The notes under the pieces are model-generated. The model had not been told where the DNA came from. It did no database searches and was given only the letters and a program-made list of their open reading frames with translations. A stretch of 35,022 nt of DNA from a virus, in the IMG/VR virus record IMGVR_UViG_3300033463_000535. One strand, written 5' to 3'. The first letter of the stretch is position 1. Each line of letters opens with the position of its first letter. The position numbers were made by a program, and so were the translations under genes. Positions 128 to 18,700 of this stretch are shown here, one piece after another.

Positions 128-418
128 AAATTAAAAACAACTAAAGGATTAAATTTTTTTGGTTGGGGTGAATTATGCGAAGATGTAAGAGTAGTAAAAC
201 AAGTAGCGGATAAAAAACCAAAATCAAGATACACACCAGGAAGCTATGAAGTAACAACAGACACATTAAGAGTAAGGAAAAAGCCAAACACATCAAGCAA
301 AATAGTGGCAAAAATTCATAGAGGAAGTAAACAGGGTGTAGATAAAACACAAGGAGACTGGGGGCATCTTATGAACAACGCAGGGTGGATTTGCCTTAAT
401 TATTGCAAGAAGATTTGA
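1..418 (+). CDS. Endolysin, 3' part (ORF wraps the circular junction; 5' part is 34759..35022). Cys/His peptidase-like N-domain plus SH3b-like C-domain, 184 aa in total
   Basis: The frame is continuous through the overlap (..KRAGTLHPISTIP..). The C-terminal YEVTTDTLRVRKKPNTSSKIVAKIHRGSKQGVDKTQGDWGHL looks SH3_3-like. GYCLQNV (Cys) and IIVCDHGTYYSDG (His) are spaced as in CHAP/Amidase_5-type hydrolases. The gene follows the holin. Confidence 0.7.
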   Translation, partial: AGTLHPISTIPTNVSVPVYVDTSSKYEHIIVCDHGTYYSDGKKLKTTKGLNFFGWGELCEDVRVVKQVADKKPKSRYTPGSYEVTTDTLRVRKKPNTSSKIVAKIHRGSKQGVDKTQGDWGHLMNNAGWICLNYCKKI

Positions 419-443
419 TAGATTTTAAAAGTTGTGATATAAT
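415..443 (+). promoter_or_regulatory. Sigma-A-type promoter with extended -10
   Basis: TTGATA (415-420), 17-nt spacer, TGaTATAAT (435-443). It lies just after the endolysin stop and 40 nt before the ATG at 483. Confidence 0.6.
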
Positions 444-482
444 TATTACAGATAAACAAAAAATATAAAAAGGAGAAATACA

Positions 483-779
483 ATGGCAGAAGAATTTGTA
501 AGTGTACACGAATTTAATTTGCTAAAAGAAGAAGTGCAAACAATTAAGCAAGAAATGGCAGAAAATCAAAAGCTATTGCAAGTTATAGATAAAAAAATTG
601 ATGTTATTTTTGAGAAAATATCAAATGCAGATAAAACAGACGAATTGAAATTACAACCAATAACAGCTAGAGTTGCAAAATTAGAAGAAAATCAAAGTTG
701 GTTGGCTAAAACTGTTGCAGGAACGATTATAGCAATAATTATAAAAATTATATTTGAATTTGCAAATGGAGGAATTTAA
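483..779 (+). CDS. xhlA: XhlA-like coiled-coil membrane protein (lysis accessory / haemolysin XhlA family-like)
   Basis: 98 aa. N-terminal coiled coil, KLEENQSWLAKT segment, then a C-terminal TM (VAGTIIAIIIKIIF), as in PBSX XhlA. AAAGGAG SD upstream. Confidence 0.55.
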   Translation: MAEEFVSVHEFNLLKEEVQTIKQEMAENQKLLQVIDKKIDVIFEKISNADKTDELKLQPITARVAKLEENQSWLAKTVAGTIIAIIIKIIFEFANGGI

Positions 780-780
780 A

Positions 781-1005
781 ATGGAAAAAGAAACATTGGC
801 AACAGAAATGTTAAAAGAACTAAAATCAAATGCAAAAAGATGGTTTATAATTGCAGTAGTGGAATTAGTTTTGTTAGTTGGAAGTAATATATGCTGGTTG
901 ATATACGAAAATCAATACGAAATAATAACAACAGATGAAACAGAACAAAGTATAGAAGATATAGATAATTCTGCCAATTCTAATTATACACAAACAATTA
1001 AATAG
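781..1005 (+). CDS. Small single-pass membrane protein associated with the lysis module
   Basis: ATG at 781 lies 8 nt after GGAGG. Central TM RWFIIAVVELVLLVGSNICWLIY followed by an acidic tail. The 754 start in the ORF track overlaps xhlA-like and has no SD. Confidence 0.6.
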   Translation: MEKETLATEMLKELKSNAKRWFIIAVVELVLLVGSNICWLIYENQYEIITTDETEQSIEDIDNSANSNYTQTIK

Positions 1006-3293: not shown

Positions 3294-3764
3294 ATGAATG
3301 GAGTAATACAAGCTATACAAGAAACAGAAAGAGCATTAACTTCTAATACAGCTTCATTGCCATTTGATACAGTTGATTTAAGGACTAGAAGTGCCATGAA
3401 TTGCACAGGATTTATAAACCATAACGAAGGGAGTGCTTTGTTTAGTATATTAGATGGCGGAATATATGAAGTAACATTTAATGCAAATGTAACAAGTGCA
3501 ACTGCTGGAAATGTAGCATTAGCCTTATTTGCAGATGGAACACAAATAGCAGGAACAGAAATGGATGCAACAATAGCAACAGCAGGAGACTGGGAAAATA
3601 TAAGTTTTGATAAAAAGATAAGAGTATGTTGCAAAGGTACTGTAAATTTAGCAATTACATCATTGCCAACAACAACATTTAGTGGAACAGGCACACCAGT
3701 AATAACAGATACAGAAATTCCAATTATAAAAAATGCAAACATAAATATTGAAAGGCTTGCGTAA
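3294..3764 (+). CDS. All-beta protein resembling the BclA C-terminal / C1q-TNF jelly-roll domain (no collagen stalk)
   Basis: AAGGAGG SD upstream. GGIYEVTFNANVTSATAGNVALALFADGTQIAGTEMDATIATAGDWENISFDKKIRVCCKGTVNLAITS has the alternating beta pattern of BclA-CTD-type domains. Confidence 0.4.
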   Translation: MNGVIQAIQETERALTSNTASLPFDTVDLRTRSAMNCTGFINHNEGSALFSILDGGIYEVTFNANVTSATAGNVALALFADGTQIAGTEMDATIATAGDWENISFDKKIRVCCKGTVNLAITSLPTTTFSGTGTPVITDTEIPIIKNANINIERLA

Positions 3765-9539: not shown

Positions 9540-10001
9540 ATGAGTGAAGAAGAAATATTAGAAGAAATAAAAGTAACAATATATGATTTTGATGGTAAAC
9601 GAGCAAGATATATTGATATTGATAATGTATGTGGTGATGAGTGCGAAAAATTTATTGAAGCAATTGAAGGTTTATTATTTTTATATAAAAAAGAGAAAGA
9701 AAAAAATAAAGAACTATTAAAAACAATACCAATAGACAATTATGATGATAGGTATTTAAAGTCTATATATATGGGTGGCTATTATGATGGATTAAGAGCA
9801 AAAATAAAAGAAAATTGGGATAATGCACAGGAAGTAGAAATAAAAAGTCAAGTTATACCAAAATATAAGATTAAAAAACTAATTGATCAATTAGAAAAAG
9901 ATAATACAGACTATTTATTGCAAGATATGTTAACAGACTCAAGAATAACAACAAGATGTATTGAAATGTTACAAGAATTATTGGAGGTAGAAAATGAATA
10001 A
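9540..10001 (+). CDS. Hypothetical protein
   Basis: GGAGGG SD upstream; 153 aa. Confidence 0.6.
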   Translation: MSEEEILEEIKVTIYDFDGKRARYIDIDNVCGDECEKFIEAIEGLLFLYKKEKEKNKELLKTIPIDNYDDRYLKSIYMGGYYDGLRAKIKENWDNAQEVEIKSQVIPKYKIKKLIDQLEKDNTDYLLQDMLTDSRITTRCIEMLQELLEVENE

Positions 10002-10200
10002 ACAACAAATAAGAAAAGCAATAATAGACAGACTGTGTAGAAATGCAATAGGATATAAAGAGCCTGCATTTCATAGTAAGAATATAACACAACAAGAAAG
10101 AGATGCAATAGCAGAAGTAATAGAAGAAATAGTAGATTACTTAGAAAACTATGAAGAAAACACAAAATGGAAAGAATTATACACAGATGATGGGAGGTAA
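9994..10200 (+). CDS. Hypothetical protein
   Basis: GGAGG SD upstream; 68 aa; 8-nt overlap with the previous gene. Confidence 0.55.
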   Translation: MNKQQIRKAIIDRLCRNAIGYKEPAFHSKNITQQERDAIAEVIEEIVDYLENYEENTKWKELYTDDGR

Positions 10201-10205
10201 TGTAA

Positions 10206-10334
10206 ATGAGCGAATATTATAAATGCTGTATATGTAATAAATTAATCAAAAAAGATAATATATATGGCAATTACGAAAATTATGTTTGTGATGAATGTTG
10301 GGAAAAACAAATGGTTTCAAAGGAGGACAAGTAA
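10206..10334 (+). CDS. Zinc-ribbon micro-protein (42 aa)
   Basis: GGGAGG SD upstream. MSEYYKCCICNKLIKKDNIYGNYENYVCDECWEKQMVSKEDK, with CxxC..CxxC. Confidence 0.45.
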   Translation: MSEYYKCCICNKLIKKDNIYGNYENYVCDECWEKQMVSKEDK

Positions 10335-10335
10335 T

Positions 10336-10575
10336 ATGGCATTTGATTTAGACGATGATGAATTAGAAGCTACAAGAAAGCTACATGGTGTAGGAAAAAA
10401 GGAAATGACTAACAAAGAAGCAATTAATATTTTAATAGGATTAGCGGTATGTATAGATCCTAAATTGCATTGTGACGATGATTGTCCGTTTTATAAAGAA
10501 AATGGAGAATGTAAATATGTGGGAAAACAGTTCGAAACTTCAGAAGCGGTAAAAGCATTGAAAGGGGAGCGATAA
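10336..10575 (+). CDS. Hypothetical Cys-containing protein
   Basis: ATG at 10336 follows AAAGGAGGA. The 10264 start in the ORF track would overlap the zinc-ribbon ORF. Contains HCDDDCPFYKENGEC. Confidence 0.55.
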   Translation: MAFDLDDDELEATRKLHGVGKKEMTNKEAINILIGLAVCIDPKLHCDDDCPFYKENGECKYVGKQFETSEAVKALKGER

Positions 10576-10853: not shown

Positions 10854-11240
10854 ATGGAAGATGAAATTAAAGTAGGAGATTGGATAAAAACTAAAGGTGG
10901 GAATATATGCAAAGTATTACAAATTAGAAAGCAGTATAGATTTACAACGAATACAGGGCATCCTTCAATAACTCCTGAAAGATATTTTGTAGATAACATA
11001 AAACAATATAGTATTTCAAAACCATATGTTAAAAAACATAGTAAAAACATAATTGATTTAATAGAAATAAACGACTATGTAAATGGGAGTAGAGTAATAG
11101 ATATAGTAGAAGCACCAGTAAGAGCAGTTTATGTCGATAAAATAACAAAAGGTGCATTAGAACCTATAATAAATAAAGACATACAATCAATAATAACAAA
11201 GGAACAGTTTAAACAAATAAAATACATAGTAAAGGAGTAA
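10854..11240 (+). CDS. Hypothetical protein
   Basis: ATG at 10854 lies 6 nt after the previous stop. The TTG at 10836 is less likely. Confidence 0.6.
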   Translation: MEDEIKVGDWIKTKGGNICKVLQIRKQYRFTTNTGHPSITPERYFVDNIKQYSISKPYVKKHSKNIIDLIEINDYVNGSRVIDIVEAPVRAVYVDKITKGALEPIINKDIQSIITKEQFKQIKYIVKE

Positions 11241-13861: not shown

Positions 13862-14905
13862 ATGAAAGTAGCCATAGACAAGAATTGTATAAAAAAAATA
13901 AAAGACTTTAAAGAATTTGAATATATATATATCTATGATGATGAAACCATACAAGAATTATTTAAAACAAATTTACATTGTATAAATAAAAGGGCAGCAA
14001 AAGATATTGATGTTGATATAAATTTGACAAATTATGAAATTAGTAGTATAAAAAAAGCAGATATAAATGATGAGAATTGGAAACAGCTGCCAAAAACAAA
14101 AGAAAATACATTTGTTATAATAGTACCGAATTATAATAATGATCATGGAGATTACAACGGAAAAACATTTTTAAGAAATTGTTTAGATAGCATATTAAAT
14201 CAAACATATAGGAATTTTTATTTAATATTTGTAGATGATTTAAGCACAGACACATCTGTAGAAACGATTAAAAGTTACAAAGATGAAAGAATACACTTAA
14301 TAAAAAATAAAAGGAAAAGATATAATGGAGGAAGTAGAAATGTCGGAATTGAGTATGCAATAGACAACTTGGATTTTGATTATTTCTGCTTTTTAGATAG
14401 TGATGATTGGTGGAAAGATAACACAATATTAGATTTTATAAATAAAAGAATATATAACAATGAAATGATGACATTGGGTTGTGAAGGAATAGGAGTACCA
14501 TATAGGCATTACAACGATGTTGAATGTTACGAAGATTTATATGCATTAAATAACAAGTTATGGTGTACAGCATGGAGTAAGGTAATAAGGAAAGATAAAA
14601 TAGTTTACTTTGAAGAAAGTACCTTGATGGAGGATAGAGTATGGACATATAAATTAGCGGACAATCTTGATTTTGATAAAGTAGTAAATTCAAACAAATT
14701 ATGTTATTGTTGGAACAGAACTAACATAGATAATAGTGTAAGCCTTGTGAGAAGTGAATTTTGGGATGCTTGTGCTTGGTGTCATATAGGACATCAATTG
14801 CAGCTAATAACACAAATGAAGCACAAGGAAATGATACCAAAAATACAAGAAAGAATAAATCAATGTATAGATAAGATAAATAGAGGAATATACCAACAAT
14901 ATTAA
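13862..14905 (+). CDS. Family-2 glycosyltransferase (GT-A) with an ~85-aa N-terminal extension
   Basis: FVIIVPNYNN..LRNCLDSILNQTYRNFYLIFVDDLSTDTS..GGSRNVGIEYA..FCFLDSDDWW has the GT2 motifs, including DxD. Confidence 0.85.
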   Translation: MKVAIDKNCIKKIKDFKEFEYIYIYDDETIQELFKTNLHCINKRAAKDIDVDINLTNYEISSIKKADINDENWKQLPKTKENTFVIIVPNYNNDHGDYNGKTFLRNCLDSILNQTYRNFYLIFVDDLSTDTSVETIKSYKDERIHLIKNKRKRYNGGSRNVGIEYAIDNLDFDYFCFLDSDDWWKDNTILDFINKRIYNNEMMTLGCEGIGVPYRHYNDVECYEDLYALNNKLWCTAWSKVIRKDKIVYFEESTLMEDRVWTYKLADNLDFDKVVNSNKLCYCWNRTNIDNSVSLVRSEFWDACAWCHIGHQLQLITQMKHKEMIPKIQERINQCIDKINRGIYQQY

Positions 14906-14914
14906 GGAGTAAGT

Positions 14915-15616
14915 ATGAAATATATAGTAATGTGTGGCGGAAGGTATCCAGAATTTAGCGAGCCAAAACAATTGATAAAAGTAAATGGTGAAGTATTAGT
15001 AGAACGCACAGTAAGATTATTAAAAGAAAACGGAATAGATGATATAGCAATATGTACTAATTGCAATAAGTTTGATTACATAGGAGTTCCAATATTGATG
15101 CAAGACAACGATTATATAGCAGATAGCGAACAAGAAAAAATAAACTCAAAAGCCTGTTGGCTAAATGCTTATTATCCGATGGAAGAGCCTTGTTGTTATT
15201 TACATGGAGACGTATATTTTTCACCAGAAGCAATTAAAACGATTATAGACACAGAAGTTAAAGATACAATGTTCTTTTGTACATTCGATTGGACAGATGG
15301 AGTTAAAGACAGAAGGAATTACAAAGGACGTGAGCCATTTGCATATAAAGTAGTAAATCAAAAGTTATTTAGACAAGGCATAAATGATTTAATGAAAATG
15401 GTAGATGAGGGAAAATTTAAAAATGGACTGCCACCTATATGTTGGCAGTTATACAGATACTTAAATGGATTAGAGATAGATTATAACACAAAAGATTGGA
15501 CACAAATTAACAATATATTTCAAACTAAAGGAGATTATGTAGTTATTAATGATTACACAACAGATGTAGATCACCCAGAAGATGCAAAAATTATGGAGGA
15601 ATGGTTAAAGAAATGA
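14915..15616 (+). CDS. Sugar-phosphate nucleotidyltransferase-like protein
   Basis: MKYIVMCGGRYPEFSEPKQLIKVNGEVLVERTVRLLKENGIDDIAI matches the N-terminal GxG..PK(Q)L..v.G signature of NTP_transferase folds. Confidence 0.6.
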   Translation: MKYIVMCGGRYPEFSEPKQLIKVNGEVLVERTVRLLKENGIDDIAICTNCNKFDYIGVPILMQDNDYIADSEQEKINSKACWLNAYYPMEEPCCYLHGDVYFSPEAIKTIIDTEVKDTMFFCTFDWTDGVKDRRNYKGREPFAYKVVNQKLFRQGINDLMKMVDEGKFKNGLPPICWQLYRYLNGLEIDYNTKDWTQINNIFQTKGDYVVINDYTTDVDHPEDAKIMEEWLKK

Positions 15617-16656
15617 TAATAGCAATGTGTGCAACAAGGAACTGGTATTTTTATACCGCAGTCGCCTTATATTCGATTTTAAGCCATAATAAAGTACAAA
15701 AGGTCTATTTATTTATTGAAGATGACAAAATCCCTTATATTCAAGATAAACGTGTTAAATTTATAAACATAAACAAAATTCCAAAGTATGTTAAAGAAAC
15801 AAGTCTTAATTACAATACACATTATACAAGAATGAGTTATACAAGATGTTTTTTTAGTAAGGTATTGAAAGAAGACAAAATAATATATCTTGATGTAGAT
15901 GCATTAGTAGTAGATAATATACAAGATTTATGGAACATGGATTTAGAAGGAAATTACATTGCAGGAGCACATGAAGGTGGAGAATGGGATAAACACTTGC
16001 AATTACAAGGATTTGATGATACATACATAAATAGCGGAGTGTTGGTAATTGATTTAAAAAAAACAAGAAAACACAAATTAGATGACAAAATGATAGAACT
16101 GTTAAATACAAAAAAATATTTATTTCCAGACCAAGATGTAATAAACATAGTATATAAGGGAAAAATAAAACATATTAGCAATATATATAATTCTGCAGAA
16201 ACAACAGGAATAGTAGATAATGCAAAAATAATACATTACATAAAAGAACACAAAGGGTGGATAAAAGAAAGTCCACGAAGTGAAATATGGTTACATAATT
16301 ATAAATTATACATAAAAAATTTATTTAAAGGAGGAAAAAAGATGTTTAGAGGAACAGTAGTAAAAAGGTTTACATTAGGAAGCAACCCTGAATACAAATT
16401 TGAAGATTTGAAAATTATTTCAAGAAAAGACAGAAATGTAGAAGGGGAACTATTTGTAGGAGATGTAATAGAAGGTAGCAACAAAATGTGTGAATATTTA
16501 CAAGGTGGAAATCCTACAAAAGAAGCATATTTAGATGATGAAACATTAGAGACTTTTCCTGATGAAAAGGAAATTGAAAAAGAAGAAAAGACTAAAAAGA
16601 TAGAAAAGAAAGTAACAAAAAAGACAACAACTAGAAGAAAAACAACAAAAAAATAA
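15601..16656 (+). CDS. Family-8 glycosyltransferase fused in frame to a ~105-aa small phage protein module (internal SD plus ATG at 16342)
   Basis: IIYLDVDALVVDNIQDLWNMDL..YINSGVLVIDLKK..LFPDQDVINIV are GT8 motifs. The start may be 15613 (ATGA overlap). The tail module reads MFRGTVVKRFTLGSNPEYKFEDLK..GELFVGDVIEGSNKMCEYLQGGNP plus a K/T-rich end. Confidence 0.8.
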   Translation: MVKEMIIAMCATRNWYFYTAVALYSILSHNKVQKVYLFIEDDKIPYIQDKRVKFININKIPKYVKETSLNYNTHYTRMSYTRCFFSKVLKEDKIIYLDVDALVVDNIQDLWNMDLEGNYIAGAHEGGEWDKHLQLQGFDDTYINSGVLVIDLKKTRKHKLDDKMIELLNTKKYLFPDQDVINIVYKGKIKHISNIYNSAETTGIVDNAKIIHYIKEHKGWIKESPRSEIWLHNYKLYIKNLFKGGKKMFRGTVVKRFTLGSNPEYKFEDLKIISRKDRNVEGELFVGDVIEGSNKMCEYLQGGNPTKEAYLDDETLETFPDEKEIEKEEKTKKIEKKVTKKTTTRRKTTKK

Positions 16657-16665
16657 GAGGTAAAA

Positions 16666-17199
16666 ATGGATAAATTAAAAATAGAGTATGTAGATATTAA
16701 TAGTATAAAACCATATAAAAATAATGCAAAATTACACCCTGAAGAACAAATAGAACAAATTAAAAATAGTATAGAGCAATTTGGCATGGATGATCCTATA
16801 GGGATTTGGAAAGATGAAATAGTAGAAGGACATGGAAGATTGATAGCTTGTAAAGAATTAGGCTATACAGAAGTGCCAATAATAAGACTTGACCACTTAT
16901 CAGACGAAGAAAGAAAAGCATATACATTAGCACACAATAAACTAACAATGAACTCAGATTTTGATATAGATATATTAAATAGTGAACTGGATGAAATATT
17001 AGATATAGACATGTCAGACTTTGGTTTTGAAAATATAGATATAGATTGGGATACAGTAGAAGATTTAACTACTACAAATTATGACAAACCTGAACATAAT
17101 ATGTTAGAATGTCCACAATGTCATCATATAGACAGAGATATACATTTTAAAAAAGTAAAAGATGTTGATATCGACGAAGAAGAATTGAGTGATGAGTAA
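16666..17199 (+). CDS. ParB N-terminal (ParB/Srx) domain protein, possible DpdB-like partner
   Basis: INSIKPYKNNAKLHPEEQIEQIKNSIEQFGMDDPIGIW..IVEGHGRLIACKELGYTEVPIIRLDHLSDEERKAYTLAHNK. The C-terminus has CPQCHH. Confidence 0.8.
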   Translation: MDKLKIEYVDINSIKPYKNNAKLHPEEQIEQIKNSIEQFGMDDPIGIWKDEIVEGHGRLIACKELGYTEVPIIRLDHLSDEERKAYTLAHNKLTMNSDFDIDILNSELDEILDIDMSDFGFENIDIDWDTVEDLTTTNYDKPEHNMLECPQCHHIDRDIHFKKVKDVDIDEEELSDE

Positions 17200-17969
17200 T
17201 GAAAGTGTTTTTAAGTGCATTAGAAAATGCTCAAGCAAGTGGAAAAAATGCTAAATCAGTTGCTCAATTATTAATAGAAAAAAATATAAAAATGAATTTT
17301 AATTTAATGAGTTTTTATTATATTAAAGGAAAAATAGATTTAGCAAGAATGATAAGAGATAACAGTAAAGAAATATTAATAGATAGTGGAGCACATTCTT
17401 TTCAAAAAGGTAAGAAAGTAGATTGGGACAAATATACAGAACAATATGCAGAATTCATAAAAAAATTTGATAAACCTAATGTAATAGGATATTTTGAAAT
17501 GGATGTCGACAACATAATTGGTTATGAGAAAGTACGAGAATTAAGAGAGAAGCTAGAAAAAGTATCAGACAAGATAATACCAGTGTGGCATAAAAATAGA
17601 GGCATAGAAGAATATAAAAAAATGTGTAAAGATTATGAAAGGAAAATAATAGCAATAACAGGATTTAAAAATGAAGATATAAAAGATGAACAATATTTAA
17701 TGTTTTTAAAGTATGCAAAAAAATATAGATGTAAGGTACATTGTTTAGGAATGACAAGAAGAAAAGTTTTAGACAAAGTACCTTTTGATTATGTTGATAG
17801 TAGTTCTTGGGTTCAATCAACCGTATATGGAAGAATAGATGGAAAAGGTAAAGTAACAAAGGAAATGAGTAGAAATAATAGAGAGGTGGTGTTTATAGAA
17901 AATTATAAAACAGGTATGAAAATACAAGAACACTATTATAAAAAATGGAAAAAAATATGTAATGATTAA
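17199..17969 (+). CDS. dpdA: DpdA-like DNA (7-deazaguanine) transglycosylase, TGT-fold
   Basis: LIDSGAHSFQ (cf. TGT DSGGFQ), IAITGF, VHCLGMT (cf. LMGVG) and PFDYVDSSSW (cf. DMFDCV) appear in TGT order. The neighbours are a preQ1-type riboswitch and YhhQ. Confidence 0.6.
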   Translation: MKVFLSALENAQASGKNAKSVAQLLIEKNIKMNFNLMSFYYIKGKIDLARMIRDNSKEILIDSGAHSFQKGKKVDWDKYTEQYAEFIKKFDKPNVIGYFEMDVDNIIGYEKVRELREKLEKVSDKIIPVWHKNRGIEEYKKMCKDYERKIIAITGFKNEDIKDEQYLMFLKYAKKYRCKVHCLGMTRRKVLDKVPFDYVDSSSWVQSTVYGRIDGKGKVTKEMSRNNREVVFIENYKTGMKIQEHYYKKWKKICND

Positions 17970-17970
17970 A

Positions 17971-18014
17971 ATAGTAGTAGTTAGCCAAAACCTACTATAA
18001 AAAAATTAAGGAGG
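17971..18014 (+). promoter_or_regulatory. preQ1-I-like riboswitch overlapping the yhhQ SD
   Basis: P1 ATAGTAG (17971-17977) / CTACTAT (17992-17998), loop tagttagccaaaac, A-rich tail AAAAAAATTAAGGAGG. Compare the B. subtilis queC aptamer AGAGGUUCUAGCUACACCCUCUAUAAAAAACUAAGG. Confidence 0.6.
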
Positions 18015-18022
18015 AATTTTAA

Positions 18023-18700
18023 ATGAATAATATTTTATTAATAGTATCAATTATAGGGATATTTAGCATAATGCTAATAATTAAAAAGTTTTTAGGTAAA
18101 GAAGGAATAATAGGTTGGATGGGTATAGCAAGTATATTAGCTAATTTATTATTAATTAAAAGTATAGATATATTAGGAATAAGTGCAACATTAGGTAATG
18201 TATTATTTGCAAGTAATTTTTTAGCAACAGATATATTAACAGAAAATTATGGATACAAAGAAGCAAAGAAGGGTGTTAGATTTGGAATATTAGCAGTAAT
18301 AGTATTTATGATAGTAACGCAAGTAGCATTGTTATATATTCCAAATAGTGAAGATATAGCACAAAGTAGTTTTGAAACATTATTTAGTTTTGTACCAAGA
18401 ATATCAATAGCAAGTGTAGCAATGTTTGCTTTATCTAATTTAGTTGATATAAGATTATATGAATGGTTAAGAAAGAAAAGTAACGGAAAGAAAATGTGGT
18501 TAAGAAATAATATCTGTACAATAATATGTAATGGAGGAGAAAATTTTTTATTTTACTTAATAGCATTTTTAGGAGTAATGGATATAGGAACAATATTAAC
18601 AATAGCATTAAGTGCAACAATAATAGAAGTATTAATTGCTTTATGTGACACACCGTTTTTATATATTAGTAAAAAAGTAGAAGATAAAATATATAAGTAA
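18023..18700 (+). CDS. yhhQ: YhhQ/COG1738-family queuosine-precursor (preQ0/preQ1) transporter
   Basis: Multi-TM. FLATDILTENYGYKEAKKGVRFG and LVDIRLYEWLRKK..MWLRNNICT..NFLFYLIAF match the E. coli YhhQ motifs (ATDL..G; D..vF..LR..WWLa..ST..D..FF.IAF). Confidence 0.85.
   Translation: MNNILLIVSIIGIFSIMLIIKKFLGKEGIIGWMGIASILANLLLIKSIDILGISATLGNVLFASNFLATDILTENYGYKEAKKGVRFGILAVIVFMIVTQVALLYIPNSEDIAQSSFETLFSFVPRISIASVAMFALSNLVDIRLYEWLRKKSNGKKMWLRNNICTIICNGGENFLFYLIAFLGVMDIGTILTIALSATIIEVLIALCDTPFLYISKKVEDKIYK

Follow-up and report, generated by a model that had tools for sequence, protein, structure and literature searches.

The dpdA-yhhQ gap and its conserved RNA fold

A short noncoding element separates a dpdA-like gene from a yhhQ-family transporter gene in the viral DNA of IMG/VR record IMGVR_UViG_3300033463_000535. 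The whole stretch analysed, hereafter the window, is 35,022 nt long; coordinates refer to its one strand, read 5′ to 3′, and the genome has a G+C content of 28%. The element, at 17976-18011, is likely to be a class I (preQ1-I-like) riboswitch that senses a 7-deazaguanine and controls translation of yhhQ within a polycistronic phage mRNA. This reading draws on conservation of the element, covariation in its two helices P1 and P2, an invariant set of pocket bases, the gene context, and positional homology with Rfam-valid riboswitches. The parts of the element and the genes around it are listed in Table 1.

Table 1. Parts of the putative riboswitch, followed by the genes that adjoin it
Feature	Position	Strand	Remarks
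P1 5′ strand, AGUAG	17976-17980	+	Extendable to 17974-17980; pairs with 17992-17996; G17980 is the closing base and pocket floor
L1, UUAG	17981-17984	+	UUA invariant; fourth base G/A/U/C, no covariation
P2 5′ strand (anti-Shine-Dalgarno), CCAA	17985-17988	+	A17988 is half of the ceiling pair
L2 (AA) and specificity cytosine C17991	17989-17991	+	'AC' motif directly 5′ of the P1 3′ strand
P1 3′ strand, CUACU	17992-17996	+	Extendable to 17998
L3, A-rich tail, AUAAAAAAA	17997-18005	+	Aligns to the RF00522 consensus AUAAAAAA
P2 3′ strand, UUAAGG	18006-18011	+	18006, 18007, 18010 and 18011 paired; A18008 and A18009 unpaired or non-canonical
Shine-Dalgarno sequence, AAGGAGG	18008-18014	+	First GG within P2; 8 nt before AUG 18023; read from the sequence
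yhhQ-family queuosine-precursor (preQ0/preQ1) transporter	18023-18700	+	TIGR00697, 163.4 bits against a cut-off of 50.95; PF02592 Vut_1, E = 1.6e-39
DpdA-like gene, a tRNA-guanine transglycosylase (TGT)-like triosephosphate isomerase (TIM) barrel	17199-17969	+	phrog_887 'queuine tRNA-ribosyltransferase', E = 3.5e-40
ParB-like open reading frame (ORF)	16666-17199	+	PF02195 ParB_N, E = 1.2e-5, 25.7 bits, just under the cut-off of 26.3; phrog_620, E = 1.2e-45

The gap measures 53 nt, between the UAA stop of the dpdA-like gene (17967-17969) and the AUG of yhhQ. Within it, AUAGUAG (17971-17977) is complementary to CUACUAU (17992-17998). In this register the hairpin has a 14-nt loop, UAGUUAGCCAAAAC, whose last base is C17991, and the tail that follows, AAAAAAAUUAAGGAGG (17999-18014), includes the Shine-Dalgarno (SD) sequence. 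An earlier interpretation made from the letters alone, the sequence-only reading, had described the gap, its complementary arms, the loop ending in C, the A-rich tail and the SD, and all of them lie where it had placed them. Its 7-bp P1 and 14-nt loop fared less well: the arms are indeed complementary in the window, but the register is specific to it. A 5-bp P1 with an 11-nt loop, UUAGCCAAAAC, is common to all relatives, the Rfam alignment and RNAalifold. Within 17971-17979 the window carries an extra UAG that has no counterpart in relatives (AUAGUAGUAG in the window versus AUAGUAG in the related locus L001), so that this phage alone has two possible registers for P1. Downstream, the spacer between SD and AUG is hypervariable among relatives in both length and sequence. 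No intrinsic terminator was found in the gap, and promoter-like sites around the element showed no excess.

Relatives were gathered with the transporter protein as query, which returned 19 IMG/VR loci, 40 metagenome loci and 13 genome loci, and with two DNA-pattern scans in which the informative positions were left free, which added further loci of the element. After removal of duplicates, these viral and metagenome contigs gave a gap-free alignment of 26 distinct versions of a 41-nt element, to which the counts below refer. Identity was compared over 28 representative loci: the element averages 87.8% (minimum 70.7%), against 65.5% for yhhQ coding DNA, 48.2% for its third codon positions and 67.6% for the last 60 nt of dpdA. 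A noncoding element so much better conserved than its coding neighbours is under direct selection. It occupies the same position in 18 of the 19 IMG/VR relatives of the transporter, and a DpdA-like ORF ends just 5′ of it in every family locus with sufficient sequence.

Both helices covary. Compensatory changes occur in three of the five P1 pairs (U-A/C-G, A-U/U-A and A-U/U-A/U-G), and the closing G-C is invariant. P2 is paired in every sequence (100% of cells); two of its pairs show compensated changes and a third shows a wobble. Its ceiling pair, A17988-U18006, is A-U in 21 sequences and U-A in five, each U/A swap at 18006 being accompanied by an A/U swap at 17988. The next pair, A17987-U18007, is A-U in 25 and C-G in the locus L135, where U18007 becomes G and A17987 becomes C; C17986-G18010 is C-G in 25 and a U-G wobble in one; C17985-G18011 is C-G throughout. 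Over the whole structure 98.3% of cells are paired, compared with 14-61% when the 3′ partners are slid by one to three columns, and changes on both sides of a pair are found in five of nine pairs, a value reached by 4 of 500 shuffles. The A/U state of the ceiling is scattered over the YhhQ tree, and all four combinations with the U-A/C-G pair of P1 occur, even though the 3′ half of that P1 pair sits between the two ceiling positions. One linked haplotype therefore cannot account for the covariation. Judged from this distribution, at least one of the two pairs has changed repeatedly and has been compensated every time. Together with the identity values, the comparison argues that the element is a real, selected RNA structure.

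The pairing that carries P2 differs from the one first proposed. The sequence-only reading had paired the loop's UUAG with the tail's UUAA, and the pair counts oppose this: the pair between the fourth base, G, and U is broken in 11 of 26 sequences, that between the third, A, and U is broken in L135, and there are no compensatory changes. Covariation favours CCAA with UU..GG. The broader idea of an H-type pseudoknot that draws the SD into P2 holds up, as the covarying helix includes the GG of the SD. A contiguous P2 like that of Escherichia coli (CCAA with AAGG) was also rejected; it needs two A·A mismatches and leaves the covariation of 17988 with 18006 unexplained.

Class I riboswitches have several pocket features in common. 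The cytosine 5′ of the P1 3′ strand pairs with the ligand, and the floor is a G-C pair whose G contacts the ligand's aminomethyl group through O6 (PMC11625349). A U fills the first L1 position, the A-rich L3 supplies a ligand-contacting A as well as A-amino-kissing and minor-groove contacts, and P2 is formed with SD bases (PMC11625349). The counterparts in the window are C17991, the floor pair G17980-C17992, U17981, L3 at 17997-18005, and the P2 bases U18006, U18007, G18010 and G18011. The closing G-C, U17981, C17991 and a U+A7 tract at 17998-18005 are the same in all 26 sequences. UU follows the P1 5′ strand in all 26, and AC precedes the 3′ strand in 25, with UC in L135. By analogy, U17981 would be the counterpart of the ligand-contacting U6, and A18005 that of the ligand-contacting adenine. 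The class I traits named by the sequence-only reading, a C immediately before the P1 3′ strand and an A-rich L3 after it, are present, and its proposal of a preQ1-I-like element before the transporter gains from purifying selection, covariation and the invariant pocket bases.

Rfam scores and the known preQ1-I types

In a permissive scan of 201 nt (17900-18100), RF00522 (PreQ1) aligned to 17971-18015 over model positions 1-45 with 20.2 bits and E = 0.042; the gathering score of the family is 39 bits. RF00522 was the only riboswitch family to appear at the element. Neither preQ1-II nor preQ1-III appeared in this local scan, where the only other entry was RAGATH-12, which is noise.

Several observations weigh against a class I riboswitch at this site. 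At gathering thresholds Rfam gave no match in the window, RF00522 included, and RF00522 reached its gathering score at none of the 19 related loci. A blind permissive scan of the whole window did not list RF00522 at E <= 10. The hairpin by itself is unremarkable, with an AU-rich P1, a minimum free energy of -6 kcal/mol and a z-score of -0.3 against dinucleotide shuffles. An unpaired AA lies between two of the proposed P2 pairs, and one pair, C17985-G18011, is invariant, so that covariation speaks for the rest of P2; the compensated change at A17987-U18007 depends on the single sequence L135. P2 has a nearest-neighbour energy of only about -2 kcal/mol, although E. coli and Bacillus subtilis come out at -2.5 and -0.9, respectively, when treated in the same way. 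The 26 sequences are kin, so that counts of paired cells exceed the number of independent events. Finally, in the lineage of loci L099 and L043, neither the CCAA nor the UUAG model of P2 fits.

The Rfam results can be calibrated against a proven riboswitch. The leader of E. coli yhhQ is a crystallised and functionally validated type III preQ1-I riboswitch (PMC10622847, PMC11625349; PDB 8fza per PMC11625349). Its sequence in NC_000913.3 reads UUGGG-UUCCCUCAC-CCCAA...AAAAAGG. In an identical 201-nt permissive scan of the K-12 leader (L133 9176-9215, NC_000913.3), RF00522 was silent at E <= 10. The family model is thus blind to a proven yhhQ-associated member, and a sub-threshold score weighs little against membership. 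The sequence-only reading had named a cmsearch score below the gathering threshold as grounds for refutation; the score does lie below it, but the test is not a valid one, since the E. coli type III riboswitch is also missed.

Cellular homologs place Rfam-valid riboswitches at the same site. The nearest cellular YhhQ homologs, 54-56% identical, come from two Clostridia genome bins (L060 and L061), and RF00522 scores 47.9 and 47.4 bits there, in the same position before the transporter. A covariance model of the phage family places both elements correctly, but at 17.0 and 14.7 bits, the noise level of A-rich chance matches, which proves nothing alone. Similarity between the phage family and type I is therefore weak both ways (20 bits in one direction, 15-17 in the other). 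Apparently intermediate leader forms occur in other homologs (L043, L048/49/63, L050, L054 and L046/47). Of these, L050, L043 and L048 connect the phage and cellular groups, and the phage-family model gives them 25-29 bits. In L049 the P2 3′ strand GCAAGG pairs contiguously with CUUUGC. The UUAAGG of the window has the length of this GCAAGG but faces a loop strand two bases shorter, which we read as the reason that the AA is skipped.

Three types of preQ1-I riboswitch have been described, with which the element can be compared. Type III has UU...AC, a short pyrimidine-rich loop, a fully paired AAGG and an A-U ceiling; it lies before yhhQ and is almost exclusive to Pseudomonadota (PMC11625349). 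The window element resembles its E. coli representative in the gene family that follows, in the UU that opens L1 and the AC, with the specificity C, that leads into the P1 3′ strand, in a 2-nt L2, in an A-U-type ceiling (U11-A28 in E. coli), in the pairing of two loop C's with the GG of an AAGG SD, and in scoring under the RF00522 gathering threshold. Control in E. coli is translational, as is predicted for the window element. The two differ in the loop, which in E. coli is 9 nt and pyrimidine-rich and in the window is 11 nt with five pyrimidines. They differ also in P2, which is contiguous in E. coli (CCU/AGG) and in the window is interrupted by AA, gains an extra A-U pair and pairs AAGG only at GG. 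In E. coli the first SD adenine contacts the ligand, whereas in the window that contact is predicted for A18005, with which the A-tract ends. Conserved G-C pairs in P1 number three in the type III consensus, while AGUAG/CUACU has two G-C pairs and relatives have two or three. Unlike the Pseudomonadota hosts of type III, the carriers here are low-GC phages whose nearest cellular relatives are Clostridia.

Type II, known from B. subtilis queC and Thermoanaerobacter tengcongensis, has the ...AC signature and a G-C ceiling (PMC11625349). The window element shares the AC motif, which implies a single ligand, and an A-rich L3 of the form AUAAAAAA. Its P2 3′ strand, WUAAGG across the family, matches CUAAGG, and of its P2 pairs the first two (A-U and W-W) are the equivalents of A10-U32 and G11-C31 in B. 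subtilis. As in T. tengcongensis, non-canonical AA steps lie between the ceiling and a C-G pair and just the first SD bases are hidden; the T. tengcongensis tail, however, is one nucleotide shorter. It differs in a ceiling that is A-U or U-A and never G-C, and in an L1 that starts with UU as in types I and III. In B. subtilis the riboswitch acts by transcription termination, whereas no terminator accompanies the window element.

Type I, the bulk of RF00522 and the type of L060 and L061, is marked by UU...UC, a conserved C in the tail and two stacked ligands (PMC11625349); UC and the tail C make up the site of the second ligand. The phage element occupies the same position by an orthologous gene and has the 5-bp P1 closed by G-C and the UU in L1. 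It also shares a AUAAAAAA-NUAAGG tail with type I, so RF00522 aligns end to end. It departs from type I in having AC rather than UC in all sequences except L135, and in a tail position that is U in 21 and A in five, not C, and that is paired to loop position 8. The element, very probably a class I riboswitch, is thus a clean member of none of types I-III.

The phage module and its relatives

The gene after the element encodes a queuosine-precursor transporter, as the sequence-only reading had it, since the product passes the curated TIGR00697 cut-off. The upstream protein gave no matches to Pfam, NCBIfam or PDB sequences, even as a profile. Its AlphaFold (AF2) model has a predicted local distance difference test (pLDDT) score of 88.6, and fold matches in the PDB are generic TIM barrels only. 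Against BFVD, the model matches phage 'queuine tRNA-ribosyltransferase' proteins, where TMq reaches 0.86 and the lowest E is 4e-26. The label 'DpdA-like' is reasonable, not proven, and these matches, with that to PHROG, bear out the earlier description of a phage setting beside a DpdA-like gene. The ParB-like ORF abuts the DpdA-like gene, and Fusobacterium phage phiFN37 has the identical ParB/TGT-like/YhhQ order. Bacterial DpdA requires the ParB-like ATPase DpdB (PMC10164549), of which the ParB-like ORF may, by analogy, be the phage counterpart.

Terminase genes lie 3′ of yhhQ. Directly before the ParB-like ORF, 13862-16656 (+) holds three consecutive genes, for a GT2 glycosyltransferase, a MobA-like nucleotidyltransferase and a GT8 glycosyltransferase. 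QueC, QueD, QueE and FolE were not found among the 20 larger upstream ORFs of the window, so the phage appears to depend on a base that is made by the host or imported. No tRNA was found in the window. In three related loci, tRNA genes lie just 3′ of yhhQ (L011 4205-4750, L012 1977-2641 and L002 2848-2918). Another relative (L017, IMGVR_UViG_3300031998_000996) carries a full-length ROOL RNA at 333-930 (+), for which RF03087 scores 165.7 bits (gathering score 99.1); the dpdA-yhhQ module of that contig lies about 2 kb further downstream.

Homologs are numerous, with more than 2000 for the transporter and more than 1500 for the upstream enzyme, the latter mostly unnamed or 'hypothetical protein'; among the best 120 for either query, identity is nowhere below 70%. 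Judged by these counts, the phage family that carries this module is abundant. By blastn, no close relatives were found among GenBank phages.

Two further phage lineages, L099 and L135, have one or two extra genes inserted between the DpdA-like and YhhQ-family genes. The DpdA-like protein of L099 is 39% identical to that of the window, its transporter scores 102 bits on TIGR00697, and the element lies between the two genes. There, at 3331-3371 (+) of IMGVR_UViG_3300026549_000147 (also in L117, and at 188-227 of L043), the element follows a DUF6884 gene and has the loop UAUGCAAAAAC, a tail ending ...CUAAGGAG and 21.9 bits on RF00522. In L135 (IMGVR_UViG_3300021400_002011) the DpdA-like protein is 45% identical (E = 1e-82), and the truncated downstream protein is above the Vut_1 threshold. 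Its element, at 11177-11217 (+), combines UC before the P1 3′ strand, the signature of the two-ligand type I, with a tail U in place of the type I C. The genes that separate dpdA from this element are a short-chain dehydrogenase-like gene (9643-10350) and a 279-aa ORF. Similar dehydrogenase-like genes (C-terminus ...LIDNGEE...NFIW) directly precede yhhQ or its leader in L040, L041, L048 and L049; in L040 and L041 no riboswitch-like element was seen upstream of yhhQ.

A DpdA-like gene beside a YhhQ-family transporter is a known arrangement of phage 7-deazaguanine DNA-modification modules such as those of CAjan, phiFN37 and CDKM15, and phage DpdA with YhhQ has already been described (PMC6884629, Hutinet 2019; PMC7544227, phage CAjan). 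Unlike CAjan, this window yielded no preQ0 synthesis genes. In the published yhhQ phages examined, moreover, yhhQ follows the gene before it without a leader, the two either overlapping or adjoining directly. Riboswitches are not mentioned in PMC6884629 or PMC7544227, and a full-text literature search found no report of a phage preQ1 riboswitch, which is not proof that none has been described before.

A probable riboswitch on precursor import: proposed mechanism, alternatives and implications

If the element is a class I riboswitch, import of the base would be subject to negative feedback. When the base is scarce, P2 would be open and the SD free, and YhhQ would be made. A ligand (preQ1, possibly preQ0) would form a Watson-Crick pair with C17991, be read by U17981 and A18005, and stack between the G17980-C17992 floor and the A17988-U18006 ceiling. 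Its binding would stabilise A17988-U18006, A17987-U18007, C17986-G18010 and C17985-G18011, with the A-tract of L3 lying in the groove of P1. The locked P2 would hide the AAGG that begins the SD (18008-18011) and so reduce initiation on yhhQ; the phage would thus probably make less importer once the base is plentiful. We infer the identity of the ligand, the OFF response to it, control of translation and not of transcription, and a transcript shared with dpdA. Since only a few bases separate the dpdA stop codon from the start of the element, and neither promoter nor terminator signals lie nearby, its target is probably an internal cistron of a longer mRNA. The lack of a terminator together with an SD inside P2 fits translational control.

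A more specific proposal is that the phage elements form a fourth, phage-associated subtype of class I, defined by UU...AC, an A-U/U-A ceiling and an interrupted P2, and tuned to the base that the DpdA-like enzyme inserts, preQ0 or a relative. We regard this as conceivable though unlikely. If true, it would be a natural riboswitch that gates the precursor for viral DNA hypermodification and not for tRNA queuosine.

A shift of ligand or role within the same fold appears improbable. The element might have been retuned to preQ0, the usual substrate of DpdA, or to another 7-deazapurine, and report on the pool available for phage DNA modification instead of the precursor of tRNA queuosine. In favour of this, it lacks both the G-C ceiling of type II and the pyrimidine-rich loop of type III, and a tail position that is C in types I and II is U or A here. 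The module, with DpdA-like and ParB-like genes and none of queC/D/E or folE found upstream, suits such a role; bacterial DpdA selects preQ0 (PMC10164549), and YhhQ transports both preQ0 and preQ1 (PMC11625349). However, all positions by which class I reads the base are unchanged, including the floor G that contacts the aminomethyl group of preQ1 through O6. The E. coli type III aptamer, whose ceiling is U-A too, binds preQ1, and nothing in the sequence requires a new specificity.

Less probable still is a conserved leader that senses no metabolite, whether a protein site, an RNase or stability element, or a constitutive attenuator descended from a riboswitch. The sub-threshold Rfam score and the weak, AU-rich P1 would suit such a leader. 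Nonetheless, a hairpin operator needs neither covarying pseudoknot bases on the two sides of the P1 3′ strand nor an invariant class I set of pocket bases. In a decayed aptamer, moreover, the specificity C, the U of L1 and the A-tract should have begun to vary; they are constant in all 26 variants, while neighbouring coding DNA has diverged to 66% identity.

Chance resemblance was weighed with a composite descriptor: a 5-bp P1 closed by G-C, then UU, AC before the 3′ strand, an A-rich tail and AGG. Its features come from published class I riboswitches but it was composed after the element had been seen; it matches the window once, at 17976, and none of 300 dinucleotide shuffles, and its 63 matches in 811 kb of fetched loci are all directly upstream of yhhQ homologs. 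An AT-rich hairpin, an A-run and a strong SD are all common at this G+C content, the hairpin energy is ordinary, RF00522 is unlisted in the whole-window, whole-library scan and Infernal E-values are optimistic for A-rich sequence, but chance is effectively refuted by the descriptor counts, by conservation above that of coding neighbours and by compensatory covariation in two helices. Rfam-valid riboswitches at the same position in cellular homologs also speak against it.

Should ligand binding be borne out, the class I riboswitch reading would have consequences for how such RNAs are counted and how far they vary. As the Rfam model misses both the phage variant and the crystallised E. coli type III riboswitch, surveys at gathering thresholds would count too few preQ1-I riboswitches, above all in viral and metagenomic sequence. 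The exchange of A-U for U-A at the ceiling, together with the mixture of traits from all three types, would be a natural test of how much variation the smallest known riboswitch fold tolerates.

If ligand binding holds true, a riboswitch class of bacterial tRNA-queuosine metabolism would be kept under strong selection in an abundant phage group. Its place inside a ParB-like/DpdA-like/YhhQ DNA-modification module would be a new biological setting for this class. These phages would regulate the import of a 7-deazaguanine base that is probably needed to protect their DNA, and the element would offer an experimental handle on the timing and amount of precursor uptake by the phage.

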